From positions 1,536,001 through 1,600,000 of the forward strand of contig CAWJDT010000001.1 of NCBI GenBank assembly GCA_963841735.1: 64,000 nucleotides of DNA. The letters run 5' to 3'. The number at the start of each line of letters is the position of its first letter. Position 1 is the first letter of the stretch. Of this stretch, positions 14,161 to 47,352 are shown in pieces. A model generated the notes under the pieces. The model was not told the origin of the DNA. It saw nothing but the letters and a program-made list of their open reading frames with translations, and made no database searches. The position numbers were made by a program, and so were the translations under genes. Source of the DNA: an uncultured Actinomycetes bacterium (lineage in GTDB: Bacteria; Actinomycetota; Thermoleophilia; RBG-16-64-13).

Positions 14161-14420
14161 CCCGACCCCTGTGGGAGTCCGCTCACCGCCGGGTAACCAC
14201 CCATCTCTCGCGAGAATATTCGCGCAAATTGCGCTCTTTTCGTAGAACGCGCGGTCTCCAGAGGCACATCCCGGTAGCTGTTGGACACCTACTCAAGTAG
14301 AAGCGGTGGGACGCCATGGGAAGCGTCAGCTATCCACGCCGCAGACGCGAAAGGGGGGGCCTATTGATCATTCACTCTTAGGGTAAGCAGGCGTGATTGC
14401 AGGTACTAAGCACGGAGTAG

Positions 14421-26507: not shown

Positions 26508-27071
26508 ATGAAGAAGCAAGCTCAGGTGCTGTTTCTTTGCGCGATTGTGTTTGTCGTCCTGCTCGCCGGCCTCCTCTTGGCCGGATGCGACAAGGGCCGC
26601 AGTTCTTCTCCGCCTGCTCCGGCGCCTGTCTCCGCGACGACAACGGCCGTGACCTGCCCTGAGGCCATCTACAGGGCTGCGAAGTGGGGAGAGCCGGTGA
26701 CCATCGAGGGGTTGGAGCGGATGACTGTAGAGGCCCCTCAGATCGATGCCGCTGCCACACCTGCGGAAGTGCCTGGGTTTCCCGGACGCGTAGTTGTGTG
26801 TTGTTCGATCACCATCGAGAATCTCGGGAGCCGGCCTCTCCACTACGATGAGTCATGTTTCCAGCTGAGTTCGCGAAACGAGACCTGGATAGGTGGGGGG
26901 GAGGGAATCAAACCATCCTCGGTTCCGGCGCTCGGCTCAGGAGAACTGCCACCAGGGGATGTCGTTCGGGGTGCGATCGCGTTCCAGTTCACCGAGGAGG
27001 CGGCGACCGTCGCCGGGCATCTCAGGTTCTACGACCTGCCATCTCTCACCGTGAGCATCGATTGGAACTAG
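26508..27071 (+). CDS. DUF4352-like lipoprotein
   Basis: Lipobox LAGC; ITIENLG..L.Y..FQL..LGSGELPPG..VRG.IAF. Confidence 0.8.
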   Translation: MKKQAQVLFLCAIVFVVLLAGLLLAGCDKGRSSSPPAPAPVSATTTAVTCPEAIYRAAKWGEPVTIEGLERMTVEAPQIDAAATPAEVPGFPGRVVVCCSITIENLGSRPLHYDESCFQLSSRNETWIGGGEGIKPSSVPALGSGELPPGDVVRGAIAFQFTEEAATVAGHLRFYDLPSLTVSIDWN

Positions 27072-27087
27072 TCGGGCACTTCTGCGG

Positions 27088-27111
27088 TCACCCCACCCTC
27101 TTCGGCATAGC
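27088..27111 (-). pseudogene. Last 8 codons of dnaE2 (fragment 1)
   Basis: CTTCTGCGG-TCACCCCACCCTCTTCGGCATAGC matches 42339-42371; AMPKRVG* versus AIPKKVG*. Confidence 0.8.
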
Positions 27112-27252
27112 TATCGTGACCCTCCCAAGGGCAACGAGGTTCTCCATGCCCTCGGTCTTCATGCGCAGACAGCAGGGCCTGATTTCAATAGACGCAGGGC
27201 ATGCGTACTCCTGGGAGCGGTACTCCTCGTCGGCGCGCTCGCGACGCTTGCA

Positions 27253-27543
27253 GTGACAGCGGCTGTATCCCGGTCCTTCTGGTCGATATGGGGCCCGATG
27301 CTTGCAGGGATCGCGCTTGCTGCAGGGGGTGGGTTCTTCTTGTTGGTGGGGAGCGGTCGCCAGGTATCCAGTGCAGCTTATTCGAGCGGCGGCTTGGGAG
27401 CCCTACTCATCGGGTTGGTCCTGACGTTTCTGGGGAGCGTTGAGAGTGGTCCGCCTATGCTGGTTCCTGGAATTGTGCTTTGTCTGGTTGGCATTTCACT
27501 AGCCGCGAGATCCCGGAAACGCGACGACTTTACTCAAGAGTAG
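27253..27543 (+). CDS. Small membrane protein
   Basis: 96 aa with three hydrophobic segments. Confidence 0.5.
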   Translation: MTAAVSRSFWSIWGPMLAGIALAAGGGFFLLVGSGRQVSSAAYSSGGLGALLIGLVLTFLGSVESGPPMLVPGIVLCLVGISLAARSRKRDDFTQE

Positions 27544-27584
27544 CGGGACTACCCTTCGGCAGCGCCCGTGCTTCCGGGTCAAGA

Positions 27585-27695
27585 TCTGGCGCCGTTTCGA
27601 CTGGGGCTTAGCCACGCACGCGAGTGAGTCTTGGCCCATTCTCAGCGGCCCCCCGGCCTTTCTTCTTGTGCCGCACCGCTCCCGATGCTATAAGG
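27585..27695 (+). repeat. Second copy of the promoter-bearing intergenic repeat
   Basis: See 26350-26461; -35 at 27666, -10 at 27689. Confidence 0.85.
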
Positions 27696-27696
27696 A

Positions 27697-28458
27697 AAGG
27701 TCATCTTCGCCACCCATTCTCCACTGTTCGTTGACCTGGAAGTCTTCGATTCCGTTCGGTACATACGAAAGGAAGCCGATACGGACGGCGGCCCTCCCTG
27801 CTGCCACGTGAATGCGTGCCGGCTAGAGAGCGCTGCCGAGGAAATGGAGCGGCTCTGTGGGCGCCCACGTGGCGAATTCACGGCGAGATCCTTCAAAGCT
27901 CATGCGGCCCCCGTCATGAACGACATTGTGAATGAAGGCTTCTTTGCTGACGCGGTAGTGGTGGTTGAGGGTTTGTCGGAGGTGGGGGTTCTGTGGGCGC
28001 TGCAGCAGGAACTTGGTGAGAAGTGGCTGGAGCGGTCCATTGTTGTGGTGCCGGCTGGTGGCAAGAACAGTATTGATAGGCCCGTGGTGATATTCCGCGG
28101 CCTGGGAATCCCCACGTACTTCATCTTCGATGCCGACAGAGGTCAGAAGCCTGATGTCAACGAGCGCTACCTGCGCATGGCTGGAGAGACGCCAACTCCT
28201 GCTCCCTCAACAGCAGTCGGGCGCAATTACGCGGTCTTTCAAGACAAGATAGAGACTGAGTTGCGACAGGCACTCGGAGAGCCGCTATTCGAATCGCTGG
28301 GACAATCGGTCGCGTCAGAACTGGGCTATGCAGGCACGAGTGACCTTCTGAAGAACCTGGATGGCGCGGCCGTGTTCGTGTCCCGGGCCTATCGCGACGG
28401 GTCTTCAATTCCAGTCCTCGAGGAAGTCGTGCGCGCAATAACTAGGCTAGTTACTTGA
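27697..28458 (+). pseudogene. 3' half of an OLD-family ATP-dependent nuclease (TOPRIM domain)
   Basis: Begins at KVIFATHSP (ABC H-loop), then EGFFAD.VVVVEG.SE, GGK, IFDAD. Walker A/B motifs are missing. Confidence 0.85.
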
Positions 28459-28493
28459 GACGAGCGCACCAGCAATGTTTCGAACGACCTTTC

Positions 28494-28674
28494 GACGCTT
28501 CGCCGCTAGGACGCGATGCGCGGGGTGAGTCAAGGGGCCAGGGAGCGTTCGTAGCAGCGCTGCGGGCGCGACTGAGGACGAGGGATCGCACCGCCGCGCG
28601 GACTCGGGGGCGAAGACTTCGTTTCGACACGATCTCAGACGTGGGGGAGCTCGTAGCTCATGCGCACTCCCATG
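28494..28674. mobile_element. Left-truncated palindromic element followed by a ~30-bp dnaE2 piece (fragment 2)
   Basis: Aligns with 29860-30004; right end CGACACGATCTC; then GGGGAGCTCGTAGCTCATGCGCACTCCCAT (MGVRMSYELP on the minus strand). Confidence 0.85.
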
Positions 28675-28777
28675 TGTCGCCGGACATCCGGTCTGAGACG
28701 GCGCGCCAAGCTGCTACCAAAGGCCGAGTCCGGTCGTAAGATCCGTGGCTAGCCTGAGAGTATGGCACCGAGAGCTG

Positions 28778-28796
28778 ATAACTATGATGTTATAAT
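28778..28796 (+). promoter_or_regulatory. Operator overlapping the -10 box of higBA
   Basis: ATAAC-N6-GTTAT overlapping TATAAT. Confidence 0.55.
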
Positions 28797-29151
28797 GAGC
28801 AATGAGGACAGGTGGCGGGTCGAGCTGTTCACTACGGCAGCAGGGCGGTGTCCGGTGCAGGAGTACATCGATGAACTGTCCAGTCAGGAAGCGGATAGGG
28901 TCACTCACGTCCTGGAGCTGCTCCGAGAAGCTGGGACCCAGTTGCAGGCGCCGCATGCCCGAAGTCTTGGTGACAAGCTCTGGGAGCTGCGAGTTGTCGG
29001 TTGCCTGCAACATCGCATCCTCTACTTCGCAGGGTCGGGTCGGCGACTGATACTCGTGAACGCGTTCGCGAAGAAGACAAGATGGACCCCTCGGAGGGAG
29101 ATCGAGACAGCCAGAAGGCGGATGACCGAACTCGAAAGGCGGGCTGACTGA
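28795..29151 (+). CDS. higB: RelE/HigB (Gp49-like) toxin
   Basis: GRCPVQEYIDEL, PHARSLGDKLWELRV, RILYF, AFAKKT..TP..EIE.A..RM. Confidence 0.9.
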   Translation: MSNEDRWRVELFTTAAGRCPVQEYIDELSSQEADRVTHVLELLREAGTQLQAPHARSLGDKLWELRVVGCLQHRILYFAGSGRRLILVNAFAKKTRWTPRREIETARRRMTELERRAD

Positions 29152-29477
29152 TGGACGACTTGGACCGTTACATAGCCGAGCGCGAAGCGCGTGACCCAGA
29201 GTTCAAAGCTGCTCGGGAGGAGTCACGGGCGCAGTTCGAGTTCCAGCGGACTCTCGTCATGTATCGGATCGAAGCCGGTATCACCCAGCGGGAGATGGCA
29301 AAGCGGCTTGGGGTCAAACAACCCGCCTTGGCTCGCTGGGAGGCAGGGGAGACCATGCCGACACTGGAGACGCTGTTCCGAGTGGCGAAGGCGCTGCAGT
29401 TGGACTTCACCGTGACCCCCGAGTCGCCTCTTCTTGTGACGCCGCACCGGGTGCAAAAAGCGGTGGCTACCGGGTAG
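29151..29477 (+). CDS. higA: XRE HTH antitoxin (HigA-like)
   Basis: DPEF..RIEAGITQREMAKRLGVKQPALARWEAG..PTLETL; TGATG coupling. Confidence 0.9.
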   Translation: MDDLDRYIAEREARDPEFKAAREESRAQFEFQRTLVMYRIEAGITQREMAKRLGVKQPALARWEAGETMPTLETLFRVAKALQLDFTVTPESPLLVTPHRVQKAVATG

Positions 29478-29487
29478 GCACTCGTCG

Positions 29488-30385
29488 CTATCCCACCTTC
29501 TTCGGAATAGCCCGCGTCCCCGCTCCCGGAGCGACGACCTCGGGCGTCGCGCCTTGCCCCCCGGCCTTCCTCCTCCCCAACACCTCCTCCAGATCCAGCA
29601 CCTCCTCGGCCACGATAGCCAACCCCCGTCTATGATTGTTCTGCAGCCTTCCCCTAACCAGGAAGTAGCTGGCCCGGGCCACCACCGGGGCGATCTTGGA
29701 GAGCTTGCTCTCGAAGCACACGCACTCGTAGAGGCCGTAGGCGTCCTCTAGGGTGAGGAACATCGTCCTTTTCCCCGAGCGCATCCAGGGGTTCTGGGCC
29801 CGTTCGTAGACGCCGGCCACCGTCACCGGCACCTCGTCTCCCAGAGCTCGTGTCGGAATGACGCTTCGCCGTCAGGTCGCGATCGGCGCGGGTGAGGCAA
29901 GGACGCAGGGAGCGTTCGTAGCAGAGCTACGGGCGCGACTGAGGACGATGGATCGCACCGCCTAGCGCGAACTGGGGGCCAAGGCTTCGTTTCGACACGA
30001 GCTCAAAGCTGGGCAGCTCGTAGCTCATGCGCACACCCATGCGGCGGAGTTCTTCTTCGTAGAGGGCCAGGGGATGACAGTCACAGTGAGCCCCAGCAGT
30101 TCGAGCTCGGAGCGGACCTTGTCCTCCAGGCTCCAGCGGCGCTCCAGTCCCGCGCGGCTGGGCGGGGAAAAGAATGCCCGCAGTTGGCCGCGCCTCCCTC
30201 CGGACGACCCGGCCAGCGCCTCCAGGCGATCGTGAAGAAGTGGCAGTCTCCAGAGCAGTTCGGTGCGGTCGGGCTCCAGGGAGTCGAAGGCCCCCACCCG
30301 GATGAGGTTCTCGGCCACGGTGCAGTCGAGGCGGGTGCGCAGGTAGAAGTCCTCGAAGGATGTGAAGGGGCCGTGGCGGCGCTCC
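29488..30385 (-). pseudogene. dnaE2 3' fragment 3, with the palindromic insertion and a frameshift
   Basis: ERRHGPFTSFEDFY..MFLTLEDAYG..AIPKKVG*; corresponds to 42348-43080 but with a different C-terminal allele. Confidence 0.95.
29844..30004. mobile_element. 161-bp palindromic element
   Basis: Terminal inverted repeats GAGCTCGTGTCG / CGACACGAGCTC; absent at the same site in the 33299-33866 piece and in the full gene. Confidence 0.88.
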
Positions 30386-30418
30386 AGGACGCCTCCAGCG
30401 AGACTGGCGGAGCGGAAG

Positions 30419-30512
30419 TTGACAGGCGCAGATCGTACTTGATAGGCTGCAATGTGATGCACCAATCGTAACGTCGGATGGGTTGGGACCCATCGGGGGG
30501 GTGACGAATTGG
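30419..30512 (+). promoter_or_regulatory. Promoter and conserved structured leader (copy 1)
   Basis: TTGACA-N18-TAGGCT; ~50-nt nested hairpin almost identical to 33944-33994. Confidence 0.55.
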
Positions 30513-30722
30513 GCGCTTACATATCTCAGTCAAACCTCAGCTCCTTTGTCTGCGGGCTGCGCCCCGCCCTCACTCCCCCAGATCACGTCGCGCCGGTCAT
30601 GGAAGCCCGGCCGAAAACGCGCATGGTGATGGCCGATGGTCCCGAAGGGAGGGTCGCCGCAACAACGTAGGTGCCCATTCCAGCAAGGGGAAGCGTTCCA
30701 AGATCAACAAGGGGGTAAGCGC

Positions 30723-30897
30723 ATGTGGAAACGTCGAATAACGTTCAGCTTCGTGGTCCTCGCTCTGCTGCTCTTCTGTACGGCAGTCTTCCTGGTCACC
30801 CGGTCCGAAGCGGCAGCCACTTCCACGGAGTACCAACAAGCGCAGAGCGTGCAGGGAACCAGCGAGCGTGAACCGGCCGCACCGCAAGCAGCGCGGG
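30723..30897 (+). pseudogene. 5' stub of a secreted protein paralogous to the 34184 gene, cut by IS21
   Basis: RRITFSFVVLALLLFCTAVFL..RSEAAAT..EPA..QAARV versus RRRTFSFIVVALLLFCTAVLL..RSEAAAT..EPA..QAARV. Confidence 0.85.
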
Positions 30898-31014
30898 TAC
30901 GATAACCTAATAGTTGACCACTTGGAGGCCGTTCGTTCATCGAAAAGTTGACCACCTTCAAGACAAGTCCTGTACCGTCGTCGCCCGAAGCGATGACGGA
31001 CAGGGGGAAGGCAT

Positions 31015-32476
31015 GTGCTGAAGATGGTCGACGTGGAGTTCATCAAGAAGAAGCACGTAATCGAGGGCTGGCCGATCCGCAAGATCGCCCGGCAGCTCGA
31101 AGTCTCGCGCCAGACGGTGCGAAAGGTTCTGGCCTCCCCGGCCGAGCCACCCCGCTATCAGCAGCACCTGCCTCGTTCGCAACCGGTCATGGGCCCATAT
31201 CTCCCCGTCATCGAACGCTGGCTCAAGGAAGACGAGACCGCGCCCCGCAAACAGCGTCACACCGCCAATCGCGTCTACGACCGCCTGGTGTCGGAATACG
31301 ACTTCCCCGGATCTGAAGTGACCGTGCGCCGGGCGGTGCGTGCCCTGCGGGGCCGGCGTGTGGAGATGTTCGTGCCCTTAGAAGCGGTACCGGGCAAGGT
31401 GGCCCAAGCCGACTTCGGTCAAGCCCACGTGCTGGTCGCCGACGCCGTGCAGAAGGTCTTCATCTTCTGCCTGCGGGCCAAACACTCCAAGGTGCCCTTC
31501 GCCATGGCTTACCCCACCGAGAAGCTGGAAGCCTTCCTGGATGGTCACGTCCGGGGTCTTGAGTTCCTGGGCGGCACCTTCCATGAGATCTGGTATGACA
31601 ACCCCAAGACCGTCGTCACCAAGATCCTTTCTGGGCCGGAGAGAGTCGAGCACGAACACTTCAGCCGCCTGCGGGCCCACTACCTGTTCGATAGCTCCTT
31701 CTGCACCCCCGGAGAGGCTCACGAGAAGGGCTCGGTGGAGAACCTGGTCGGATACGTGCGCAGAAACGCGCTGGTGCCTGCCTCAAAGCCCTTTGCCAGC
31801 CTCGAGGCCCTGAACGCTCACCTGCGCGCCTTCTGCGAGCGGGAACGGGACCGTCATGCTGACGCGTGGGCACTGGAAGAGTCTGCTCTCGGGCCTTTGC
31901 CCCTTCACCCCTTCCGGGCCGCCACCTCCCGGCCGGTCTCGGTCTCTAAGACCGCGCTGGTCCGCATCGACCACAACCGCTACTCGGTGCCGGCCGTTCA
32001 TGCCGGCCGTCTCTTGCGGGCTGAGGTCTACGCAGATAAGGTTGAGATCCATGCCGACGCCACGCTCGTGGCCACCCATCTCCGCAGCTACCGTCGCGAC
32101 CAGAGCTTCCTGGATCTGGCCCACTATCTGCCTGCCTTTGCGAGAAAGCCTCGGGCGGCCGGCTGCTGCGCCGCCCTTCATCAGGCCGATCCGGTGTTCT
32201 TGCGCGCCCGGGACCGTCTGCTCGCCGATCCCGGTGGATACCGGGTCTTTGCCGAGATTCTCATGCTGGGGCTGCGCTTCGATCTTGAGATCCTGGCCGA
32301 AGCCCTGGGCGAGTGCTCTAGCCTCCGGGAGACTCTCGGTCGAGGGTGTCCGCCAGCATTGTCTTAACCTCACCCACCCGGCGCCGCAGCATGTGGAGGT
32401 GCCTGAGTTCTTGGCTCTGCGCCTTCCCCGGCCGGATCTTTCTCGCTACGACGCCTTGGCGGCGGTGGCCCGATGA
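31015..32476 (+). CDS. istA: IS21 transposase IstA, frameshifted near 32316
   Basis: HTH IRKIARQL.VSRQTVRK, AQADFG, WYDNPK, EKGSVEN.VGYVR. The C-terminus LASGRLS..PDLSRYDAL is in another frame and ends overlapping istB. Confidence 0.92.
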
Positions 32477-33240
32477 ACTCAGAGGTCGTCGCGGCCCAGG
32501 TCAAGCTCTTCACCCAGGAGCTGAAGATGCCGGGGCTGCGCACTCATTTCGAGGAGATCGCCCGAGAAGCAAGAGGCACCGGGGAATCCCACGAGGCCTA
32601 TCTGGTTGCCTGTCTGCGGGCCGAGATCGAGTCCCGGCGAGAGCACCGGCTGCAAGATCGCCTGAAACAAGCCCGCTTCCCCCACCGAAAGACGCTCGAT
32701 GAGTTCGACTTCACCCTGGTGCCGTCGGTCTCCAAGGAAGAGGTTCTCAGCCTCGGGCAGGGTGAGTTCGTGCGCGCCCGGGAGAACGTCATCCTCCTGG
32801 GGGCCAGCGGCACCGGCAAGACCCATCTCGCCCAGGCCATCGGACACGCCGCCATCTACGCCGGCGCTCGGGTCCGCTTTACGAGCGCGGTCGCGCTGGC
32901 CCAAGAACTACTCGCGGCTCAGGATGAGCATCGTCTACCACGCTACCTAAAGAGCTGGCAGAAGAGCGACCTTGCCATCGTCGATGAACTCGGATATCTG
33001 GCACTCGGGCCGGGAGGCCCCTTGCTCTTCCAGTTCTTCGCCGAGCGCTACGAGAAAGGCTCGGTGCTCGTGACCTCCAACCTGGAGTTCTCCCGCTGGA
33101 GCGAGGTCTTCGGTGATCCGGTGCTCACCGCGGCTCTTCTTGATCGCCTCACCCACCACAGCCACATCCTGGTGTTCGAAGGGGAGTCCTACCGGTTCAG
33201 GGAGAGCCAGAAGCAGAAGACGAGATCTCAGGCGAAGTGA
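32473..33240 (+). CDS. istB: IS21 helper ATPase IstB
   Basis: GASGTGKTHLA, IVDELGY, TSNLEFSRW, ALLDRLTHH, GESYR. Confidence 0.96.
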   Translation: MNSEVVAAQVKLFTQELKMPGLRTHFEEIAREARGTGESHEAYLVACLRAEIESRREHRLQDRLKQARFPHRKTLDEFDFTLVPSVSKEEVLSLGQGEFVRARENVILLGASGTGKTHLAQAIGHAAIYAGARVRFTSAVALAQELLAAQDEHRLPRYLKSWQKSDLAIVDELGYLALGPGGPLLFQFFAERYEKGSVLVTSNLEFSRWSEVFGDPVLTAALLDRLTHHSHILVFEGESYRFRESQKQKTRSQAK

Positions 33241-33298
33241 CCGGGGTGGTCAACTATTCGATGATCGAGGTGGTCAACTTTTCGGTTGACGAACACAC

Positions 33299-33866
33299 AC
33301 CAGGAAGTAGCTGGCCTGGGCCACCACCGGGGCGATCTTGGCGAGCTTGCTCTCGAAGCACACGCACTCGTAGAGGCCGTAGGCGTCTTCTAGGGTGAGG
33401 AACATCGTCCTTTTCCCCGAGCGCATCCAGGGGTTCTGGGCCCGTTCATAGACGCCGGCCACCGTAACCGGCACCTCGTCGCCCATACTGGGGAGTTCGT
33501 AGCTCATGCGCACGCCCATGCGGCGGAGTTCCTCCTCATATAGAGAGAGGGGATGGCAGGCAACCGTGAGTCCCAGGAGTTCGAGTTCGGAGCGGACCTT
33601 GTCTTCCAGGCTCCAGCGGCGCTCCAGGCCCGCGCGGCTGGGCGGGGAAAAAAACGCCCGCAGTTGGCCGCGCCTCCCTCCGGACGACCCGGCCAGTGCC
33701 TCCAGACGATCATGAAGAAGTGGCAGTCTCCAGAGCAGTTCGGTGCGGTCGGGCTCCAGGGAGTCGAAGGCTCCCACCCGGATGAGGTTCTCGGCCACGG
33801 GGCAGTCGATGCGGGTGCGCAGGTAGAAGTCCTCGAAGCTGGTGAAGGGGCCGTGGCGGCGCTCCT
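33299..33866 (-). pseudogene. dnaE2 fragment 4
   Basis: Matches ~42514-43081; same right breakpoint (..GGCGCTCC) as fragment 3. Confidence 0.95.
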
Positions 33867-33900
33867 AGACGGTTTGACCGCAGCCGCCTCGCCAGGAAGG

Positions 33901-33994
33901 TTGACAGGCACAAGCCGGGTCTGATAGCGTTCGACGCCTTGCACCAGTCGTAACGTCGGATGGGTTGGGACCCATCGGGGGGGTGACGAATTGG
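33901..33994 (+). promoter_or_regulatory. Promoter and conserved structured leader (copy 2)
   Basis: TTGACA-N18-TAGCGT; GATGGGT-TGGG-ACCCATC hairpin inside an outer TCGT.AC/GT.ACGA stem. Confidence 0.55.
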
Positions 33995-34183
33995 GTGGTC
34001 GCGGCCTCATACCTCAGTCTCACCTCAGCTCCTGTGTCTGCGGGCTACGTCCCGCCTTCACTCCCCCGGACTATGTCTCGTCGGTCGACGCGCATCGCGA
34101 CGGTTTCTGGTACTGAAGGGGGGCGCCCACAGCAACGTAGTTGCCCATTCCAGCAAGGGGAAGCGCTTCAAAGGGGTAGACGC

Positions 34184-36334
34184 ATGTCGAGACGTCGAAG
34201 AACGTTCAGCTTCATAGTTGTTGCCCTCTTGCTTTTCTGTACGGCAGTTCTCCTTGACAGCCGATCCGAAGCGGCCGCCACTATCGACGAGGTGCAGCCA
34301 ACGCACGACGCCCAGTGGATCACAGAGAGTGAACCTGCGGTGGTGCAGGCGGCAAGAGTTCGTGAGCTCTCGGAGCTGAGAACCGACAGGTCCAAGACCT
34401 TCGAGCTGGCTGATGGGCAAAGAGAATGGGTGGGCTACGGAGAGGCGGTTCACTACCGAGATGCGAGTGGCGCGTACCAGGACATCGACGACAGCATTGT
34501 GACTGATGCCAAGCAGATTGACGGAAGCAGCTATTCCTTTAGGAACGGAGCCAACGCCTTCACCGCTCGGTTCGGGGCGGATGCAGCCGATCCCCGGCTT
34601 ATCATGATTGAGTACCAGGGCGCTTCCATCGCCTTCGGTCCGGCTGGTGCGAAGGCCTCCGTCGCGACAGAGACGGCTGACGTCAAGAGCGAGGCCCTCG
34701 CCGACATGACCTACGGAGAGAACCTGGTCGGGTATCCAGAGGTCTACCCGGGAATCGATCTCTTCTACGAGCTCAAGACATACGGGGTCAAGGAATACCT
34801 CACGTTGCGGCACCAGACCACCTCAAACGAGTTCACTTTCAATCTGATTCTGAAAGGGCTCACCCCGAAAGAAGCCGATGGCCGCATCACCTTCGTGAAC
34901 GACCAGGGCGAGACTCTCTTCTGGTTGGGCGAGCCTGTGGCGGTGGACGAGGCCGGGGTGGCAACCAAGGATGTTGCCTACACGATCTCCGGCAAAGGAA
35001 GCGAGTACAAACTCACGGTCAAGGTGTCACAGACCTATCTCGATGACGCCGAACGCGTCTATCCGGTGATCGTGGATCCGGACTTCCTGATCACTGGGAA
35101 CGCCGATACCTATGACACATACGTGAGTTCGCGGTATCCCGATTCCATATACACGTACAACACCTACCTGAGGACTGGCAGGGACAGCGACTACTACACA
35201 AGAAGGACCTATCTCAGGTTCGACTTGAGCGATGCATACGGCATCGGGTCGGACAATGTCACGGGTGCCTACATCCGTCTGGAGAAGTACAGCGGAGCAA
35301 CCCCGGCGATAACCGCGTATCGCAATACCGGCAGTTGGTCTTCGGGGACAGTCACCTGGAACAATCGGCCATCCTATACCACCAGCGAATGCTCGACCAC
35401 TGCATACAACGATAGTGGCGCCTGGTGGCGCATGTACAACCTCACAGTGGTGAAGAAGTGGCTGAATGGGACATATCCCCAGTGGGGGTGGATGATCAAG
35501 GACGCCGCGGATTTGTCTGGAACGACCCAGTGGACCACCTTCTACGCCTGCGATGCCCCGTCGCCCCACAAGCCCGAGCTCCACATCCAGTACAACCTAA
35601 GTCCGATAGCCGCTGCTTTTGGCTACAACGTGGACGGGCCGGGACAAGATCCGAATCCTGACATCCACACTTGGTACGCAGCACAAGACGCGGCTTCTTG
35701 CATGGCGGGTGTGGGGTACAGCGCCCAGGCCTACAAGAACTACAGCGCCTACACTCTGTACAACAGCTTTGGCCCAGACGCAATCTGGTACTGGGCGTTT
35801 CACGGTGGCGTAGATGGGGGCTGGCTCACAGCAAAGAAGTGCGTAGACGATCCCCCGTACGTTGCGAATTAGGTGCAGTATCTTGAGGCATTGCCTAACC
35901 ACGCCAACACCCCGGGAGCTGATTCGAACACCAACGGAGCTCACTTCTATCTGAACAACCTGAATGCAGCTACGGCCACAAGGACTCTCTTGGCAGTCTT
36001 TCAAGGATGCTACACAGGACTGTACAGGGTCGGCCACAACGGCGACCGGAACTACAACTTGTGTGGTGTGGTGGTATTGAAGGGCGTCGATTGCTCCATC
36101 GGTTTCCAAGATGAGATAAGTGCAAAGGTGAATGACGACAACAACCCCACGCGGTATTGGGCCGACTGCTTCTTCAGTTCTCTAGCCGCCAATGACTTGG
36201 GAGTATCCGACGCCGCGGCATGGGCATCCTGGGCGTTTATTGATCACTATGGCGACTTCGGAGGGTATGACTCCTACATCATATTCGGCGACTACAATCT
36301 GAAGATCCTGCCGCAGCGCTACGGAGGGGGCTAG
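34184..36334 (+). CDS. Large secreted protein: WapA/Rhs-like N-terminal region, DNRLRE-like domain, caspase-fold-like C-terminus; interrupted by an in-frame TAG at 35870-35872
   Basis: Signal peptide; RT..SKTFE..DG, AVHY, YPVIVDP; DTYVSS.YP..RTYLRFDL..KPEL.I.Y; FHGG and FQGCYTG. The ORF at 35873 continues in the same frame with no RBS. Confidence 0.75.
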
Positions 36335-36405
36335 GCCGTCTTCCCGGTGGAGACCGAGCTTGATGGCAGTGTGATTGAGGGTACCGATAGCGATTGGAGA
36401 AGACG

Positions 36406-36873
36406 ATGAGGAGAACAAAGCTCAACATTCTGGTGGTTGCTCTTGCCGTCCTCTTGATTGGTGGCTTGGTCGCCGGTGTCATCCTAGCCAGGACAGCCGC
36501 CGTCGTTGCCCAGCCCGACCTCCTCGCGGTTGCCGGGAAGCAACTGCAGACGGCTCTGGGAATCCCGGAGCAGGTGGTAAGCGTTTCCACCTCTCAGAAC
36601 CCCGCGCTTCCGGGCACAGATACTGTTCTCCAATGGGATGGTGGCCGTGCCTGGGTCAATAGCGATACGGGTGCAATTGTGGGACTGCTTCAGGAGCGAA
36701 CGGAAGGCGACAACAAAGCCCCCTTCCTGGAAGACTCGCAACTGGCCGAAGCGGCAGCCAGCTTCCTCGCAAGTGTGGGGTGGGATGACATTGCTCTCGC
36801 TGCCGCTGGCTTCAGGGGCGGGCGTGGGCTCGACGGCATGGAGGTCAGACTCGGCAGTCGGCCGTTGTTGTAG
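36406..36873 (+). CDS. Membrane-anchored exported protein, possibly internally deleted
   Basis: GGAG RBS and N-terminal TM; the C-terminus looks abrupt. Confidence 0.55.
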   Translation: MRRTKLNILVVALAVLLIGGLVAGVILARTAAVVAQPDLLAVAGKQLQTALGIPEQVVSVSTSQNPALPGTDTVLQWDGGRAWVNSDTGAIVGLLQERTEGDNKAPFLEDSQLAEAAASFLASVGWDDIALAAAGFRGGRGLDGMEVRLGSRPLL

Positions 36874-36909
36874 GAAGCACCGCATCCTCTTGTTGCGAAG
36901 GGTGCACAA

Positions 36910-37325
36910 ATGAGGTATCCGAGACTGTCTCAGGCTTTGGGCGTTGTCTTCTGCCTTGTTGCGCTTGGGATTGCAGGCGGCTGCTCGCACGGGAGTGTTC
37001 CAGCCGACCAAGACGGCGGGGACTCGTCATCAAGCGCATCTGGTTCGGTCCCACCCCGTATGCCCGATCCGATCACTACTCGTTGGCCGCTCGGGCTCGA
37101 GAACGTGGTGGCCGCCCAGGGAGACCAGCTGTGTGTCGTTGACGCCCAAGGGCTCGTATTCCGCGAACGGAACCCCCCGCTCACAGTCATGGCGCGGGAC
37201 GAACAATCGGCTACGTTCAGCTATGCTCTGAGCAACAACGGAAAGTACATCGCCTACCTTGCCACACGCGGGGAACTGCTTGTGCGGGCAACAGCTACTG
37301 GGCGACAGACTGGGTCGGTGCCGAT
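36910..37325 (+). pseudogene. TolB-like propeller lipoprotein truncated by dnaE2 fragment 5
   Basis: Lipobox AGGC and LSNNGKYIAY; the frame runs into dnaE2 sequence at ~37326. Confidence 0.7.
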
Positions 37326-39132: not shown

Positions 39133-39539
39133 GTCTGGTGCATCACGCTACTTTCTTGCGACGTGGCTGCACTGTGTTTGCCGGCGGAGTCCTGTGCTCG
39201 CCGAGGTCCACTCTTCTGGCAATCGGACGCATGGCGCGAGAAGGATCCTCGCAAATTGCGGGTTTCGTGCAGGAGGAGCTGTCGAGAATGGCACCATTCG
39301 GTAGGAGCCGGACATTTGTATGAGTAGGAGCGATGAGGTGCAAGGGGCCTCACCATGCACGCCGCAAACACTGATGGAGGGGCCTATCGAGTCTTCGGTC
39401 TGAACTCATCGGGGGGCCAGAGATGAGAGGCCCACCTTGACAACACAACAACGAAGCCTTGATGCGGGTTGTGCAATGACGGTAGCGGTTTTGAACGCAC
39501 TTTGTGTTTGACCCCATGCCAACAAACGGAGGAGGGACG

Positions 39540-40943
39540 ATGAACACTAGGCGACTCGCGGTCACAGCACTCGTAGTCGCAATGTCATTGCTGGTGCTCT
39601 TCAGCTCGATAGCCCTGGCGGCAGATGACGCATATCCGGCTGGCTATGAAGTGAGACTGCCAGCCATAACCGACAGCGCGCTTGACTATTCGGCGGTCAC
39701 GACGGTCATAGCGGGCTACTTCACGACCTACTACCGAAGCATAGAGCAATTGGCCGTAGCGCCGGAACTCGCCGACTACATCATCGATAACGACGAGACC
39801 CACTTGTACACTTGCGCCTTGCAGTATTCGATTGACTGGCGCAAGGCGTCCGGCCCTGACCTCGCCGGCATAGTGGATACCAAGGTGGAACGTGTCGACA
39901 TCAAGTACGCAAAGCAGAGCAGCGATCGGCCGCTTGAGGTAGTGGCAGCTGTGGGGGTCGGCTTTCGTTATCTTGCCGATCCTTCGCAAACAAGGGCCAG
40001 GGCAGAGCTTCTGTGGGAAATTGGGATAGATACGATAGACGGCGACCTTAGGATAGCGAGCCTCAACTCGGAAGCCAGCGACTATCGCTGGCGGAAGGCA
40101 GAAGTTGAAGAGAAGCTCAGGAGCGTCGATAACGCGGCGTATACGAAGACCGATGCAATCGACGAGCTGTATGCAGAGCTTCACTCTCAGATCAGTTCAC
40201 ACGTTGTCGGGCCCACAGAGGTACCGACCCCTGGTGAGGATACATCTGCAGAAGAAGAGGACAAGGCGGCTGCCGTAGCCGCGAGCCCGTCCATCATGAT
40301 GTATTCGCGGCCTTACGACGGGTATAAGGCAGCCTATTATGGCAGATGCAAAGGAGACAGCGCAGGAACGGGGATATTCCGCAACATGCACGACTGTGGT
40401 GGCTACGACTGTACCAACTTTGTGTCTCAGTGCATCTGGGCTGGCTACGGTGGAACCCAGAACTATGACATTACCACTCAGCAAGGGATGGCTGCGTGTG
40501 CCCAGTTGGCCCGACAGGACTACAGACAGATCCGATACAACCAGGCCGACCCCTGGTACGGGCGTAGCGTACTCAGTCCCCCCACGTATCCAGCACAGGA
40601 CTGGATATCAGTAGACTACCTATATGGCCATATACAAACGGACTCCATGGGACCCCGAGGCACGCACCACAACAATCACAATCTCTATAACAGCTCCATA
40701 GGCCAGAGTCTGGCGGTGTACGTGGGTCATGTTATTCAAATTGACCATGCGGCTTATGCCGCCCCGTATTATCACTCGATGATGGTGGTTTCTAGCTGGG
40801 GCACCCTGTCGAATCCCTATGCCATCTATGTGGCACAGCACGATGGCAACTATTCCTTTCGTCAGTTTTATGACGCTATGTACGAAAACAACTGTTGGTA
40901 CGCACGAACTATCAGGTTTACAAGCGGTTCGTTCAACGAGTAG
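39540..40943 (+). CDS. Secreted protein with C-terminal Amidase_6 (NlpC/P60-like) domain
   Basis: GGAGG RBS, signal peptide, DCTNFVSQCIWAG, YHSMMV, VAQH. Confidence 0.85.
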   Translation: MNTRRLAVTALVVAMSLLVLFSSIALAADDAYPAGYEVRLPAITDSALDYSAVTTVIAGYFTTYYRSIEQLAVAPELADYIIDNDETHLYTCALQYSIDWRKASGPDLAGIVDTKVERVDIKYAKQSSDRPLEVVAAVGVGFRYLADPSQTRARAELLWEIGIDTIDGDLRIASLNSEASDYRWRKAEVEEKLRSVDNAAYTKTDAIDELYAELHSQISSHVVGPTEVPTPGEDTSAEEEDKAAAVAASPSIMMYSRPYDGYKAAYYGRCKGDSAGTGIFRNMHDCGGYDCTNFVSQCIWAGYGGTQNYDITTQQGMAACAQLARQDYRQIRYNQADPWYGRSVLSPPTYPAQDWISVDYLYGHIQTDSMGPRGTHHNNHNLYNSSIGQSLAVYVGHVIQIDHAAYAAPYYHSMMVVSSWGTLSNPYAIYVAQHDGNYSFRQFYDAMYENNCWYARTIRFTSGSFNE

Positions 40944-41008
40944 TTCGGACAGCCGACGCGGGGGCGCATGTTGCTACATGCGCTCCCGCATCATCATGCG
41001 AGGTGGTA

Positions 41009-42082
41009 ATGAAGAGGGTTAGCGCAGTTGTCCTGAGCATCGGCGTTTTGTGCGCGTATCTGGTCGGCTGTACAGGAGCGGAAGGGGCAGTGACCAGCAG
41101 TGGCTTCTCGGCTACCGCAGAGACGGCGATAGGACCTGAGACGGGCACTGAGACCGGGGTGGCGAGCTTTGTCTGGCGACCAGACGCGAAGCAGGGATAC
41201 GGTTCAGACGTTGCCAATAGACGGGCCTACGGAAACCTCGATGGCGGCGACGGGATGCTCTACTTTCGGGCCTACAATGGCCGTGAGTCTCCGCTTTGCT
41301 CGCTGTTCTCACTTGATGAGGCAACTGGCGAGACCAAGGAGTTGGCAGACGATTGCTACGGCATGGTGAATCTTGCCGGGGACTGCGTCTTCTACATAGG
41401 TGAGGTGAGTGAAGGGGTCTTTTGCTACAACACACAGACTCGGCAGGTGACCCAGGTGTATGAGGGGCCGGTGCTCAATCTGCTGGCCACAAGAGACTAT
41501 GTATATATCATCAGCCAGGCACTTGAGCTGCTAGAGCTGGAACGGGGGAGCGGGGCAATACGAGAGGTGATGAAAGGCGTCTGGTACCAGTATCTAGAGG
41601 CGATCCAGGGCGCTGTGTATTTTGCCCAGATGATGCCTGACGAGATGCACTGCAGATTGTACAGAATACCTCCCGGGGCTCCAGGTGGTGCGGATCCCGT
41701 CTATGACGGGGTCGCGTGCCCACTGAAGGTGATGGGGACGCGCGTCCTGTGCGGGGGTAGTGAGAGCGCCGAGTTGCTCGACATGGACAGCGGGCAGAAG
41801 GTGAGTCTGTATCGGTGGGATAGCGGGGCGGGTTTGCCGGCTGCCAATGGGAATGGCGTGTTCCACGTCACGATCGACGATCAGGGATATGCAGAGCTGT
41901 CCGTGTTCGACTTAGAGCGCGAGACAACGTCCACGCTGATGCCGGTACATGGTGGGGCGGTCTACTTCGTTGATGGAGAGATGTACCTCGTGAGCCCGGC
42001 GAACCTTGACATAGAGCGGGTCATTCTTGATCCGAGCGATCCGCGTACTGAGTGGGTCGTGCGGGGTGACAGTCCGAGATAG
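41009..42082 (+). CDS. DUF5050-like beta-propeller lipoprotein
   Basis: GAGGTG RBS, lipobox LVGC, repeated DG.LYF / GD.VFY / DYVY / GAVYF strands. Confidence 0.75.
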   Translation: MKRVSAVVLSIGVLCAYLVGCTGAEGAVTSSGFSATAETAIGPETGTETGVASFVWRPDAKQGYGSDVANRRAYGNLDGGDGMLYFRAYNGRESPLCSLFSLDEATGETKELADDCYGMVNLAGDCVFYIGEVSEGVFCYNTQTRQVTQVYEGPVLNLLATRDYVYIISQALELLELERGSGAIREVMKGVWYQYLEAIQGAVYFAQMMPDEMHCRLYRIPPGAPGGADPVYDGVACPLKVMGTRVLCGGSESAELLDMDSGQKVSLYRWDSGAGLPAANGNGVFHVTIDDQGYAELSVFDLERETTSTLMPVHGGAVYFVDGEMYLVSPANLDIERVILDPSDPRTEWVVRGDSPR

Positions 42083-42136
42083 GAGGGAGGGCCGCAAGAC
42101 CTTGAGAGGGCGCGGGGCACCGATGGACGGGGAGGG

Positions 42137-42347
42137 AACGAGACCTGGATAGGTGGAGGGAAGGGAATCAAACCATCCGCGGTTCCGGCGCTCGGCTCGG
42201 GAGAACTGGCCCCTGGGGATGTCGTCCACGGTGCGATCGCGCTCCAGTTCACCGAGGAGGCGGCGGTGACCGGGAAGCTCACGTTCTACGACCTACCCTC
42301 CCTCACCGTGAGCATCGAGTAGAACTAGTCGGGGGCCGCTTCTGCGG
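42137..42347 (+). pseudogene. 3' fragment of the DUF4352-like gene plus its spacer to dnaE2
   Basis: Aligns with 26877-27087; a TGG>TAG change near the end. Confidence 0.92.
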
Positions 42348-45300
42348 TCACCCCACCTTCTTCGGTATGGCATTAGTCCTGGCTCCTGGCGCAACCACCT
42401 CCGGCGCTGGTTGCCCTCCAGTCTTCCTCCTCCCCATTACCTCCTCCAGATCCAGCACCTCCTCGGCCACGATAGCCAACCCCCGCTTATGGTTGTTCTG
42501 CAGCCTCCCTCTCACCAGGAAGTAGCTGGCCTGGGCCACCACCGGGGCGATCTTGGCGAGCTTGCTCTCGAAGCACACGCACTCGTAGAGGCCGTAGGCG
42601 TCCTCTAGGGTGAGGAACATCGTCCTTTTTCCCGAACGCATCCAGGGGTTCTGGGCCCGTTCGTAGACGCCGGCCACCGTCACCGGCACCTCGTCGCCCA
42701 TACTGGGGAGCTCGTAGCTCATGCGCACGCCCATGCGGCGGAGTTCCTCCTCATATAGAGAGAGGGGATGGCAGCTCACCGTGAGTCCCAGGAGTTCGAG
42801 TTCGGAGCGGACCTTGTCCTCGAGGCTCCACCGGCGCTCTAGGCCCGCGCGGCTGGGCGGGGAAAAGAATGCCCGCAGTTGGCCGCGCCTCCCTCCGGAC
42901 GACCCGGCCAGCGCCTCGAGGCGATCATGAAGAAGTGGCAGTCTCCAGAGCAGTTCGGTGCGGTCGGGCTCTAGCGAGTCGAAGGCCCCCACCCGGATGA
43001 GGTTCTCGGCCACCGGGCAGTCGATGCGGGTGCGCAGGTAGAAGTCCTCGAAGGATGTGAAGGGGCCGTGGCGGCGCTCCTGTTCGATGCGGTCGAGGGA
43101 GCGGTCGCCCATCTGCTTGAGGTACTTGAATCCTACCCGCAGGGCGCGGCCGGCGTCGGGGGCGATGCCGGTGCTGGGGGCGAGGCAGGCGCCCGGCTCC
43201 ACGCCGCCGCGGGCGCGGGGCGCACGGGGGAGGGTGAGGTCGCCGGGGAGCGGCGGCGCTTCGCGCCGCGCTCCGGCCGGCGGTGGCTCACCACCCGGGG
43301 TCAGACTGGCTGTCGGCGGTGCGGCGCTGCCGGTCAAAACAGCGCCAGATTTCGCATCATCCCCACGGTGGTCGTCGCCGGAAAGCTTCTGCTCCAGCGC
43401 CACCCTCAGGGCCTCGGCATAGGCCGACTCGCCCTCCTGCTCGGCGCTCAGCTCGGCCAGATCGGCCTCGGTGAGCCCCCAGTGGTGCTCGGCGGTCCAG
43501 GCCTGGGCGAAGGGGTCGTAGGGGGTTTGCGCCCCGGGGGTGTGCGGCACCGCACTGTCGGTGTTCGGCGCCGCCTCACCGTCGGTCTGCGGCAGCGCCT
43601 CACCCGCGGCCCAAGGGTCCGGCGGCACCTCGTCCTCCACGGTAAAGCCGCGCCCCGACAGGTTGATATCCAGCGGCCGCACCTCCAGCCCAAACCGCCG
43701 CGCGTCGTTCAGCACCGTCCTTGGCGTGTAGAAGCCCATGGGGTAGTTGTTGAGCACCGAGCACAGGAACTCGGCCGGGTAGTAGGCCTTGAGGTAGGCG
43801 GTGGCGTAGGCGATGACGGCGAAGCACACCGAGTGGCTCTTGTTGAACCCGTAGGCGGCGAAGCCCTCCAGCTGGCGGAAGACCTCGCGGGCGGCGTCGG
43901 GGGGCACGCCCTGGGCGATGGCGCCGGCGATGAAGGTCTCGCCGATCTTGGCCATCTCCTCCCGGCTGCGGTCGCGGGTCATGGCGCGGCGGAGGGAGTC
44001 GGCGTCGGCCAGGTCGAACCCGGCCACCGACTGGGCTATGCGGAGCACCTGCTCCTGGTAGAGGATCACCCCGTAGGTATCGGCCACGGCCTCGGCCATG
44101 GCGGGGTGGGGGAGGACGACCGGCTCCAGGCCCCAGCGGCGGTCGATGAAGGGGCCGATCATCTCGGCCTCCAGCGGTCCGGGGCGGTAGAGGGCGATGG
44201 CGGCGATGACGTCGTCGAAGTCCCGTTCCTGCAGACGGCTGGCGAGGTTGCGCTGGCCGGCCGACTCCAGTTGGAACAGCCCGATGGAGCCTCCGTTGCT
44301 GACGATCTCGTAGGCGGCGGGATCGTCGGGCGGTAGCTCGTAGGGCCGGATGCGCCGGCCGGTGCGCTGCCTTATCAGGTGCACGCACTCCGAGACGGCC
44401 GAGTGGGTGCGGAGGCCCAGGATGTCCATCTTGACCAGGCCCAGGGCGGCGACGTCGTCCTTGTTGAACTGGAGAACGACGACCCCTTTCGCGGCCCACT
44501 GGAGCGGGGCGTAGTAGGTGATGGGCTTGTCGGCGATGACGAAGCCCCCCAGGTGCGTGCCCAGGTGCATGGGGAAGGAGTCGAGGCGTTCGACCAGGTC
44601 GAGGACGCCGGGGGTCCGGGACTGCCGGGGGCGCCGTCACCGGCGGGCGCGCCCCGTCTTGTAGCGGCGAGTCCTTCAGCTCCGGCCAGGCTCCGGCCAG
44701 ATACTCCCTCATCCGCGCCGCGTCCCCGTGGTGGGGCACGTGCTTGGCCAGGGCGTTGATCTCGGTGGGCGCGAACCCCAGGGCCTCGGCCACGATGCGC
44801 ACCGCCGAGCGGGGGCTCATGGTGTTGACGTTGGCCACCACAGCCACGTTTTGGTCTCCGAAAGTCTTGTAGATGTGCTCTATCACCTCGTCCCGGCGCG
44901 ACGAACAGAAGTCCACGTCGATGTCGGGCATCTCGCGGCGGTTGGGATTGAGAAACCGCTCGAACAGCAGATTGTGGCGGATAGGCTCCGACGCCGTTAT
45001 GTCCAGCGCGTGGCAGACGATGGAGTTGCCGGCCGACCCGCGGCCGCTGCACGCCACCCCTTTGGCGCGTGCCCACCTGACGATGTCGTGCACCACCAAG
45101 AAATAATGGGCGAATCCCATCTGCTGGATCATGCGGAGCTCCTTCTCCAGAAGCTCCACCGCCCGCGGGGGCACGGGCTTGTAGCGCCGGGCGATGCCCC
45201 GGAAGCAGCGCTTGGCCAGGAGCGAGTAGGCCGTCTCGCCGGCGGGCAACGCCGACCTGGGGGAAGTGGAAGGTGCCGAGGTCGAGGTCTACGTTGCAGC

Positions 45301-46842
45301 GCTGGGCGATGGCCCACGTGGCGGCGAGCGGCGACGTCGCCGGGGCGCCGGCCTCCGTCCCGACCGGCGCTGCCGGCACCGTCCCAGCCCGTCTCACGCT
45401 CCACCTTGTATGCAACATACGTTGCATTGCAATACTCATGCATCAGACCGTAGTCTGCTGGTGCCCAATCGCCCCACCAGTCCGGGGGCTCTTCCTCGGC
45501 GCCGATCAGCCCCAGCAGCGGGCTCGGCAAGAGTCTCTAGCTCAGCCTTAGACTGAAGGTAGCGGACGCCGGGCACTGGTTCCGGATAGCCCGACAGTGG
45601 CTTATCGCGGCCGGCGGCGCGGCAGACCAGGTGAAGCGCGCGATCATTCTCACCTGCGTAATGGGCATTGGTGGTAAGCACGGTGCCGACGCCGCAGGCG
45701 TCCGGCCAGGCGGGCCAGGCGCTCGCAGTAGGTGAGGCAGGAGAGGCGCCAGGGTCGGCCGTCGCGGTGGAAGCCGACGTCGAAGTCGGCGGGATTGAGC
45801 CGTCTGTGGGGCGCCGCGGGGCAGGTCGGGACGGGCGGCGCTGCGGGGCGGCGACCAGACGGCGTAGCGCGCGTCTGTGCGGGCGCCTCGGCCACAGCCG
45901 TGCGCCAAGATGCAACCAAAGTTGCAGAAGAAGCAAGTACGCAACGGGGCAGAATGGGGGGCGATGACTGTGGAGTAAGGCGGTGACTGTGGGGAAGGGG
46001 GCCGGGCAGCGCTGGGGCCCAGGGGGCGCAGGCCTTAGGGCTGCGGCCGGCTGCGTGGTGGGGCGATGCCGGAGACGGTTGCCGTCGGCGCGGATCTTCT
46101 CGTAGACAGGGGAGCCGTGCTGGCCGGCGTGGGCCTCCTGGTGAGGTTCGTAGCCGAAGTACTGCAGCTCTACATAGAGGTGGTCGCGATGCGAAGAGCG
46201 TCGCAGAGGCGGAGGAGGGCGGCGCGGGCCTCCTCGTCGCGGCCGGCGTCGACGAGGGAGCCGATCTCTCCGTGCCTGCAGCCGGTGAGGCAGATGAGGC
46301 CCTCGGCGTGAGCGGCGAGTGACTCGACGGTGACGGTGGGGGGCCGCTCCCGCTCGGGATCGGCCAGGTGGGCGGCGGAGAGCAGGCGGCATAGGTTGGC
46401 ATAGCCCTCGCGGGTCTCGGCGAGTAGCACCAGGTGGTGCGGGTCGGCCGGGGCGCCGCGGCGCGCCGGCGGCTGCGGCCGCGTTGCGCGGCGTCTGCGC
46501 CGGCCGTCGCGGCTCGGCGGTCGCCGGCACCGCGCCGCCACCGCCGGGCAGCAGCGACTCCACCCGCACCTCGGCTCCGAAGATGGGCTTGATGCCGTGC
46601 TTGGCGCAGGCCTTGGCGAAGCGCACGGCGCCGTAGAGGCCGTCGTGGTCGGTGAGAGCCAGGGCCGGCTGCCCCAGCTCGGCCGCCCGGGCGACCAACT
46701 CCTCGATCCGGCTGCCACCGTCGAGGAACGAGAAGTTCGAGTGCACGTGCAGGTGGACGAACGGGGTGGAGTCGGTCGGCGCCTGGGCCTCGGCGTCGGC
46801 TGAGGCGAAGGAGTCGCCCGGTGGAGATTGGCTATTTATCAT
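42348..46842 (-). CDS. dnaE2: Error-prone DNA polymerase III alpha (DnaE2-like); several frameshifts in the 5' half (sequencing errors or pseudogene)
   Basis: PHP FVHLHVHSNFSFLDG, ALTDHDGLYG, TTNAHY; GRGSAGNS, FERFL..PDIDVDF, KMDILGL, OB-fold RSGK..FLTLED; SOS boxes upstream; pieces lie in several reading frames. Confidence 0.88.
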
Positions 46843-46863
46843 TACAAGGGCCGGCCCGTGTTG

Positions 46864-46909
46864 TGAACATATGTTCGTAGGAAACAGCAGTATAGCGAAC
46901 AAATGTTCG
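46864..46909. promoter_or_regulatory. Two Gram-positive-type LexA (SOS) boxes
   Basis: GAAC-ATAT-GTTC (46865-46876) and GAAC-AAAT-GTTC (46897-46908) directly upstream of dnaE2. Confidence 0.9.
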
Positions 46910-47276: not shown

Positions 47277-47352
47277 TCTAGGTCATCATCCATCTAGGTC
47301 ATCATCCATCTAGGTCATCATCCATCTAGGTCATCATCCGTCTAGGTCATCA
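47277..47352 (+). repeat. 16-bp tandem repeat, 4.75 copies
   Basis: TCTAGGTCATCATCC(A/G) head-to-tail, no spacers. Confidence 0.95.

Follow-up and report, generated by a model that had tools for sequence, protein, structure and literature searches.

The window analysed here is a 64,000-nucleotide stretch of the genome of an uncultured Actinomycetes bacterium (Thermoleophilia; contig CAWJDT010000001.1, positions 1,536,001 to 1,600,000), and its subject is an array that lies downstream of a gene for a second C-family DNA polymerase resembling DnaE2. Self-BLAST of the window, followed by alignments, located five partial copies of this gene (c1 to c5), all on its own strand and downstream of its full-length form, with low-GC cargo genes on the plus strand between them. 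A preliminary description of the window had reported five same-orientation partial copies alternating with plus-strand cargo; its coordinates and cargo families agreed with our results, and the two differing allele tails were as it had quoted them. The features are listed below from the resident gene to the far end of the array.

46865..46908: two LexA/SOS boxes, GAAC-N4-GTTC (at 46865 and 46897), upstream of the polymerase gene
42348..46840, minus strand: resident second C-family polymerase gene, DnaE2-like (start approximate, stop at 42348)
42137..42321, plus strand: 3' remnant of an allele of the DUF4352 gene, 87 % to 26877-27071
39133..42136, plus strand: cargo unit of leader, Amidase_6 protein (39504-40943) and DUF5050 protein (to 42082); 57 % GC
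37326..39132, minus strand: c5, putative displaced allele end, 3'-truncated; a mosaic relative to the resident gene (about 99 %, 90 % and 99.7 %)
37432..37593: hairpin dispersed repeat resembling a miniature inverted-repeat transposable element, within c5
33867..37325, plus strand: cargo unit with a leader, a DNRLRE/CBM96 protein (33965-35872) and three partner ORFs, of which c5 cuts the last; 59 % GC
33299..33866 (33298 in self-BLAST), minus strand: c4, putative displaced allele end, 95.6 %; 3' side cut by IS21
30897..33298, plus strand: IS21 insertion sequence, single copy, with istA (31015-32367) and istB (32473-33240)
30386..30896, plus strand: leader and 5' stub of a second DNRLRE-like cargo gene, 73-80 % to 33867-34338
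29488..30385, minus strand: c3, putative displaced allele end with its own stop; 92.1 % overall, self-BLAST blocks of 93.1 % and 90.1 %
29844-30004: hairpin insert in c3
28675..29487, plus strand: cargo, a higBA-type pair (28762-29477; Gp49/RelE and HTH)
28494..28674, minus strand: c2, a 31-bp gene piece (28644-28674, 30/31) and then a truncated, more diverged hairpin insert
27112..28490, plus strand: cargo of small membrane protein (27253-27543), repeated leader (27585-27695) and 5'-truncated OLD TOPRIM gene (27808-28458)
27088..27111, minus strand: c1, the last 24 bp of an allele with its stop; 21/24
26508..27071, plus strand: full DUF4352 lipoprotein gene (25.5 bits, just below cut-off), which closes the visible array

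The array and its resident polymerase gene

In self-BLAST, c5 matched the resident gene at 92.8 % over 1578 nt and at 96.2 % over 106 nt. The stop codon is reached by only two of the five copies, c5 and c4 being without the stop region. Breakpoints had been described as differing between units, which holds for many of them, but c4 (from 33866) and c3 (from 30385) have a common 5' breakpoint (43081/43080) and their leaders are 80 % alike. At the outer ends of the array, 26877-27111 matches 42137-42371 at 87 %, and this match carries the end of the DUF4352 gene together with the polymerase-end piece c1. The GC content of the polymerase gene is 69 % and that of the array cargo units 57-61 %. A conserved leader of some 110 bp, containing a small palindrome, precedes secreted-protein cargo in several arrays and genomes (window 39222-39346 and 14213-14316; contig C1 of this genome, G000:C1:434674; L021 10175-10288 and 14847-14974; hydrogenase arrays of G010 and G008). 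An Rfam search of window positions 20000-48000, which include the leader copy at 39222, gave no matches at E<=0.1. The leader standing before three fragments could be a promoter or the end of an element; it was read as a cargo leader, because either orientation with respect to the anchor is seen and because it precedes secreted-protein cargo elsewhere.

The array has been eroded by deletions, IS21 and hairpin inserts; the preliminary description had omitted both the IS21 and the hairpin insert in three copies. The IS21, whose IstA and IstB score over NCBIfam cut-offs, is located within the array, where it has cut into both c4 and the stub of the second DNRLRE-like gene. No target duplication is visible, and a deletion has probably occurred adjacent to it. 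The hairpin repeat (161-162 bp, with relatives elsewhere in the genome amounting to 20 profile matches) occupies one and the same site in c5, c3 and, in truncated form, c2, and is missing from the resident gene and c4. As assembled, the inserts shift the frame (+164 and +163). Hairpin repeats also lie within coding genes (L023 3764-3923, L039 9014-9185 and window 12376-12506), some of which are still in frame, including the polymerase of G001 (a 1584-aa frame) and the window's aminotransferase. The in-frame palindromic elements of Rickettsia are comparable to such inserts. Further short repeats match the polymerase linkers.

The resident polymerase comprises PHP, catalytic, finger, HhH and OB domains with long low-complexity linkers, terminates after the OB fold and has intact catalytic motifs. 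The DnaE2 model PRK05672 was the best NCBIfam match for its last 740 residues but fell below cut-off, and a full-length relative scored 818 bits against a cut-off of 939, about equal to its score for the DnaE model. No imuA or imuB partner adjoins the gene, and the only IMS match in the genome, which is 89.7 % complete and was given no separate ImuA search, reads as DinB. Because the PRK05672 match is under cut-off and no ImuB was found, the safe name for the product is a 'DnaE2-like, stand-alone' polymerase. The gene resembles the imuA-imuB-dnaE2 cassette in its upstream LexA box and differs from it in having no adjacent imuA/imuB. The same GAAC-N4-GTTC box is present twice upstream of lexA, and an SOS box was found at 51 of 56 relative loci (locus sets overlap, so these are not 56 genomes). 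Across the family the second polymerase has 1400-1600 aa, with variable long linkers inside and around the PHP domain, an SOS box and no imuA/imuB beside it; G041 and G053 each have two full copies. As assembled, the 5' half of the resident gene contains six frame changes, and the polymerases of G004 and G010 (8-10 contigs) likewise change frame. Since many relatives keep open frames of 1400-1600 aa, the six changes are likely, though not proven, to be sequencing indels. A short tandem repeat of about 17 bp in four to five copies lies upstream of the polymerase promoter (window 47300-47350).

Allele ends in the window, in relatives and at other genes

The copies had been described as allele-like, and their differences from the resident gene within conserved domains are indeed nearly all synonymous: 25 synonymous and no non-synonymous for c5, 21 and 4 for c4, and 30 and 6 for c3. 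The ratio of non-synonymous to synonymous change (pN/pS) of the window copies is 0.00-0.07, whereas a value close to one would be expected of a duplicate that had no promoter and simply decayed where it lay. Because of this almost wholly synonymous pattern we infer that the window copies diverged as working genes and are the ends of once-functional alleles of the same clade. Among six other fragments of this genome five lie at 0.06-0.30 and one at 0.52, and four comparisons in G014 gave 0.12, 0.30, 0.46 and, for the shortest piece, 1.48.

In a tree of the HhH/OB region (52 rows; bootstrap not settled, so that support values are rough), the three long window copies group with their own resident gene (99/72), which suggests that the donors were mostly close strains; a fragment of G049 groups with the genes of other genomes (98/55). 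The segment 28674-29843, comprising the end of c3 and higBA, matches G004 at 93 % identity, and the matching part of G004 is where the full gene ends and its next genes begin. For this one unit, then, what appears in the window as a displaced c3-higBA unit is by its sequence the primary, donor-like locus of a relative, which supports the earlier idea of incoming DNA. Likewise, in G016, the Amidase_6 and DUF5050 families directly follow the full polymerase gene. Identity to the resident gene had been predicted to fall with distance, and in this array it does (99.0 %, then 95.6 % for c4 and 92.1 % for c3), but no such fall was seen in G014, in G010 or in a restriction-gene array of this genome. 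The age order drawn from identity does not generalise to those three arrays, and because the trend is missing there, identity would seem to reflect donor relatedness rather than age.

The wider family set (f1) comprised 61 genomes, this one (G000) and 60 relatives, which as kin are not independent. The last 753 bases of the polymerase gene were matched in 47 of the 61, with a long match in 42. Extra same-strand pieces downstream of the gene were firm in seven of these 42 (G000, G014 with three pieces, G049, G016, G041, G001 and G012) and weak or crossing a contig end in a further two (G004 and G020). Among the matches listed, none lay upstream of the gene, and the best 150 of 343 matches included no displaced 5' pieces of dnaE2. 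The expectation that relatives would carry different cargo was borne out, with about 27 groups of first genes after the polymerase in 34 loci by crude gene calls. The DUF4352 junction, which had been taken as the original one, does recur as an 87 % repeat at both ends of the array, but as a conserved original neighbour it finds no counterpart, DUF4352 having been found in 0 of 60 relatives in a DNA-level search. Because of these two results the arrangement is not invariant, and DUF4352 is only the oldest neighbour visible in this lineage. In G018 (L033 6017-19711), about ten toxin-antitoxin-type modules in one orientation stand directly behind the polymerase, with no gene-end remnants and no attC match among them.

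The layout recurs at other genes. A genome-wide scan for local repeats passed 42 direct pairs and one inverted pair through its filter. The restriction-gene array has three displaced ends with toxin-antitoxin cargo; its anchor, which we take from a C-terminal motif to be type-ISP-like, gave only a weak methyltransferase match in NCBIfam. A hydrogenase/sulfite-reductase gamma subunit gene has two displaced ends, with SIR2 (under cut-off)/HerA-like cargo, and there are single cases at an aminotransferase, an oxidoreductase and an NYN gene. Of the 27 genomes in which the restriction gene had a match of any kind, 9 contain tandem same-strand pieces of it, with as many as four on a contig; for the hydrogenase gamma subunit such pieces were found in 5 firm and 1 weak of 53 genomes. 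The 3' kilobase of dnaE1, a thin control in being a single gene, showed displaced pieces in 0 of 57 genomes. On these sequences the layout, shown for three genes, is not specific to dnaE2, and any gene that is dispensable and borders a variable region may serve as the anchor. The two SOS boxes agree with the previous account of an SOS-induced dnaE2, but because the same arrays sit on non-SOS genes a part special to dnaE2 or SOS is not supported.

Mirror-image cases, in which a 5' piece is left upstream, occur at two loci (an aldo-keto reductase and a DUF362 gene), and strict 3' polarity was accordingly rejected. Replication polarity was rejected as well, since by GC skew dnaE2 is head-on to the fork and the restriction and hydrogenase anchors are co-directional. 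Within the window, positions 1737-4450 contain a displaced aminotransferase piece (1737-1957, 88 %), a 291-bp 5' piece of the aldo-keto reductase at 99.3 %, a small toxin-antitoxin-like pair and then the full reductase gene, as a recent mirror-image event. At G000:C1:1605062-1611858 a third cargo gene of the DNRLRE type lies between two 92 %-identical copies of the NYN gene, so that one cargo family is found on different anchors.

A proposed two-step route and its rivals

The preliminary description had seen no integrase in the window, and our searches agree. No common core is visible at the 14 listed polymerase-fragment junctions. A profile of attC was derived from the integron of this genome; as a positive control it finds 15-16 sites elsewhere in the genome, but it gave none in the three arrays and one weak match in 119 loci. 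No recombinase lies near the array, the genome's eight tyrosine-recombinase matches and one serine-recombinase match all lying elsewhere, and a retro-mechanism was rejected because no reverse transcriptase was found in G000.

We consider it fairly likely that old allele ends and unrelated cargo were stacked up in the array by recombinase-free, homology-anchored insertion in two steps. DNA of a related strain would pair with the gene and bring its own gene end and neighbouring genes, pushing the old end and its cargo downstream. The first and rare step would be a one-sided homology-anchored insertion, in which the far end of the cargo, on its promoter side, becomes newly and illegitimately joined to a site within the resident gene. 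The cargo would then be flanked by two pieces of the same gene, and a second, easier step could proceed by ordinary RecA crossovers, either as an out-of-register double crossover or through a looped-out circle and its re-entry. The cargo could in this way be inserted into any cell that has the gene, with the same join copied again, and deletions, IS21 and hairpin inserts would later erode the stack.

Two steps are favoured because both unique and re-used junctions were found. Many junctions are unique, as expected from one-sided insertion. Others have been re-used, one upstream sequence standing ahead of two fragments (c3 and c4, a G010 pair with 90 identical upstream bases and a G008 pair), as would follow if homologous recombination copied a join that was already there. 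Independent joins also cluster at one spot of the restriction gene. What appears to be a fresh event is seen in G072, where a gene is followed by a HicAB-like pair and then by a 253-bp fragment of 99.6 % identity. One feature of homology-facilitated illegitimate recombination (HFIR), a single homologous anchor joined to foreign DNA, is present in the one unit whose gene end and higBA form the primary locus in G004. Another is short GC-rich microhomology at the illegitimate join; at the single testable junction it amounted to 9/12, a value reached by 2.9 % of 2183 positions, with a donor only 93 % alike.

Several points weigh against this account, and the 9/12 microhomology at one junction is counted among them. 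A retained duplicate of the anchor is not known to be the usual product of HFIR. No insertion event was observed, the exact donor was not found (the amidase unit has one distant match in 60 relatives), and no reads cover the junctions of this assembly: seven sequencing runs contained only 5-6 % of its words, and mapping of four of them gave short pieces from other organisms, none of which spans a cargo junction. Two fragments have pN/pS of about 0.5 and one of 1.48, the window copies cluster with their own gene as local duplication would also produce, and competence of this lineage is a prediction from gene content. HFIR itself is cited by Kirchberger et al. as several orders of magnitude rarer than homologous recombination (PMC5361080).

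With regard to uptake, com and dprA genes had been anticipated elsewhere in the genome, and comEA-comEC and comM-dprA operons are present (comEA and comM being named from sequence and position); comEC occurs in 54 of 61 family genomes. A MutS domain was found in 2 of the 61, and NucS matches were weak and partial in 26, mostly about 40 of 124 positions, with no full match and none in G000. Family f1 is thus apparently without both MutS and NucS, as reported for Coriobacteriia; two other Thermoleophilia have NucS. In Mycobacterium smegmatis, loss of NucS raises recombination of 85-95 % identical DNA 3-10-fold (PMC5290159). The gene content suggests that DNA entered by natural transformation and that missing mismatch repair allowed tolerance of 85-95 % identity.

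Among the rivals, circles could be the main route, a gene fragment with cargo entering as a circle (for example in a phage particle or vesicle) and integrating by one crossover, as proposed for rhs tips. This would explain both the old end kept without deletion and the re-used junctions, and a model is given in PMC2935791; yet a circle does not make the first junction, a point left open by those authors, many different breakpoints exist, and most loop-outs here would probably break the resident gene. We regard circles as the principal route as unlikely. Local tandem duplication and deletion in one lineage, with an allelic look lent by later gene conversion from foreign alleles, fits the clade formed by the copies with the resident gene, the near-identical blocks of the c5 mosaic and the existence of 99 % partial duplications. 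Duplication cannot, however, supply unrelated low-GC cargo after each end, and it is at odds with the c3-higBA unit being the primary locus in another species (G004) and with the grouping of the G049 fragment with other genomes' genes (98/55), which leaves it quite improbable.

That co-occurring strain haplotypes were joined in tandem by metagenome assembly is very unlikely. The assembly is of metagenome type with frame errors and no read cover, and strain mixing would also yield synonymous differences, but many independent assemblies show this layout too. Some of them are fragmented, with 120-370 contigs (G005, G006, G008, G015, G016 and G017), and an artefact of long reads is hard to reconcile with that; decay is moreover evident from truncations, from remnants of 24-50 bp and from IS and hairpin inserts, and the dnaE1 control is clean. 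Barely more credible than not at all is a mechanism in which the polymerase or its SOS induction drives the insertions: the SOS boxes are conserved, genes on both sides of the polymerase are variable and G041 and G053 have two full copies, but equal or longer arrays sit on genes without a listed SOS box nearby. Least probable, and largely refuted here, is site-specific integration of integron cassettes or tandem integrative islands that leaves repeats behind. The genome does have an IntI-like integrase and attC clusters, and the cargo is rich in toxin-antitoxin pairs, but the arrays contain no attC and no common core, their repeats range from 24 bp to 2.1 kb, and neither a nearby recombinase match nor a reverse transcriptase was found.

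If a loop-out ran through c5, c4 or the 5' part of c3, the polymerase left behind would be frameshifted or truncated. The free excision or swapping of cassettes proposed earlier is thus doubtful and, because most loop-outs would break the polymerase, the stack probably acts as a ratchet more than as a switchable library. A broader proposal, which we put forward tentatively and hold to be possible but doubtful, is that the family runs an integrase-free cassette system. Cargo between two pieces of a common dispensable gene would be a self-flanked cassette, spread by transformation into every cell with that gene, the gene ends serving as attC and RecA as IntI, at several loci in parallel and helped by the loss of both mismatch-repair systems.

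Comparison with known systems

The best reading is that the arrays represent the displacement process known from rhs, type VI secretion system (T6SS) and tpsC loci, here on ordinary genes with arbitrary cargo. In rhs C-terminal displacement, as presented by Jackson et al. (2009, PMC2935791), an intact gene is followed by same-orientation, 5'-truncated core fragments with intervening genes. The present arrays share the variable-length same-strand fragments of the same clade, the intervening genes and the old end shunted downstream; unlike the rhs tip, a variable toxin domain with a cognate immunity gene in that account, the conserved HhH/OB end serves here as a handle and the payload is unrelated neighbours. 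Sequential insertion at a conserved anchor, a proposed role of HFIR, absence of a recombinase and comparison with integrons also characterise the Vibrio cholerae T6SS effector-immunity arrays described by Kirchberger et al. (2017, PMC5361080). There, however, selection is for the immunity genes of one system and incoming and displaced parts are non-homologous, whereas in the window array the two parts are allelic, and in the present case no fewer than three unrelated genes act as anchors.

The tpsA/tpsC and maf cassettes of Neisseria (PMC3848433, PMC1797815) are alike in having 5'-truncated copies among ORFs, a transformable host and decay by frameshift and truncation, and collecting the intervening genes is suggested as the purpose of tpsC-type cassettes; they are polymorphic toxin loci with recombination shown by experiment, whereas here it is inferred. 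Hotspots without mobile genetic elements, as described by Oliveira et al. (2017, PMC5635113), likewise involve housekeeping recombination without an integrase and are enriched in transformable species, but replace an interval through two flanking core genes; here one gene provides both arms, content is added and allele ends pile up. Integrons and clusters of attC sites lacking integron integrases resemble the arrays as ordered, growing sets rich in toxin-antitoxin and secreted-protein genes; the arrays differ in having no attC, no adjacent IntI, multi-gene units with their own upstream regions and repeats that are long coding alleles. Unlike tandem integrative islands at gene 3' ends, they have no fixed att core per unit and no integrase. 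In the openly accessible literature we found no description of such arrays on ordinary genes, and none on dnaE2 in Thermoleophilia.

Many hotspots of gene gain are without mobile-element genes, and how genes are gained rather than swapped is an open question according to Oliveira et al. (PMC5635113). In the arrays each insertion has left a scar that can still be read; the scars lie at ordinary genes, three or more loci are involved and many genomes have them. With sets of strains they make it possible to test how much one-sided insertion, circles and out-of-register crossover each contribute. They also tie the process to a lineage apparently without both MutS and NucS, and they serve as a warning that assembled 'pseudogene' fragments of this kind need not be errors or simple duplications.

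The integron used for the attC profile lies elsewhere in the genome. Integrons are uncommon in Actinomycetota. An IntI-like integrase is encoded on contig C6 (G000:C6:25193-32518), where an IS110-like gene has inserted and some six toxin-antitoxin cassettes are accompanied by attC-like sites, and clusters of attC were found on C1 (390-392 kb, 812-816 kb and 1358-1362 kb) and C5 (146-149 kb).

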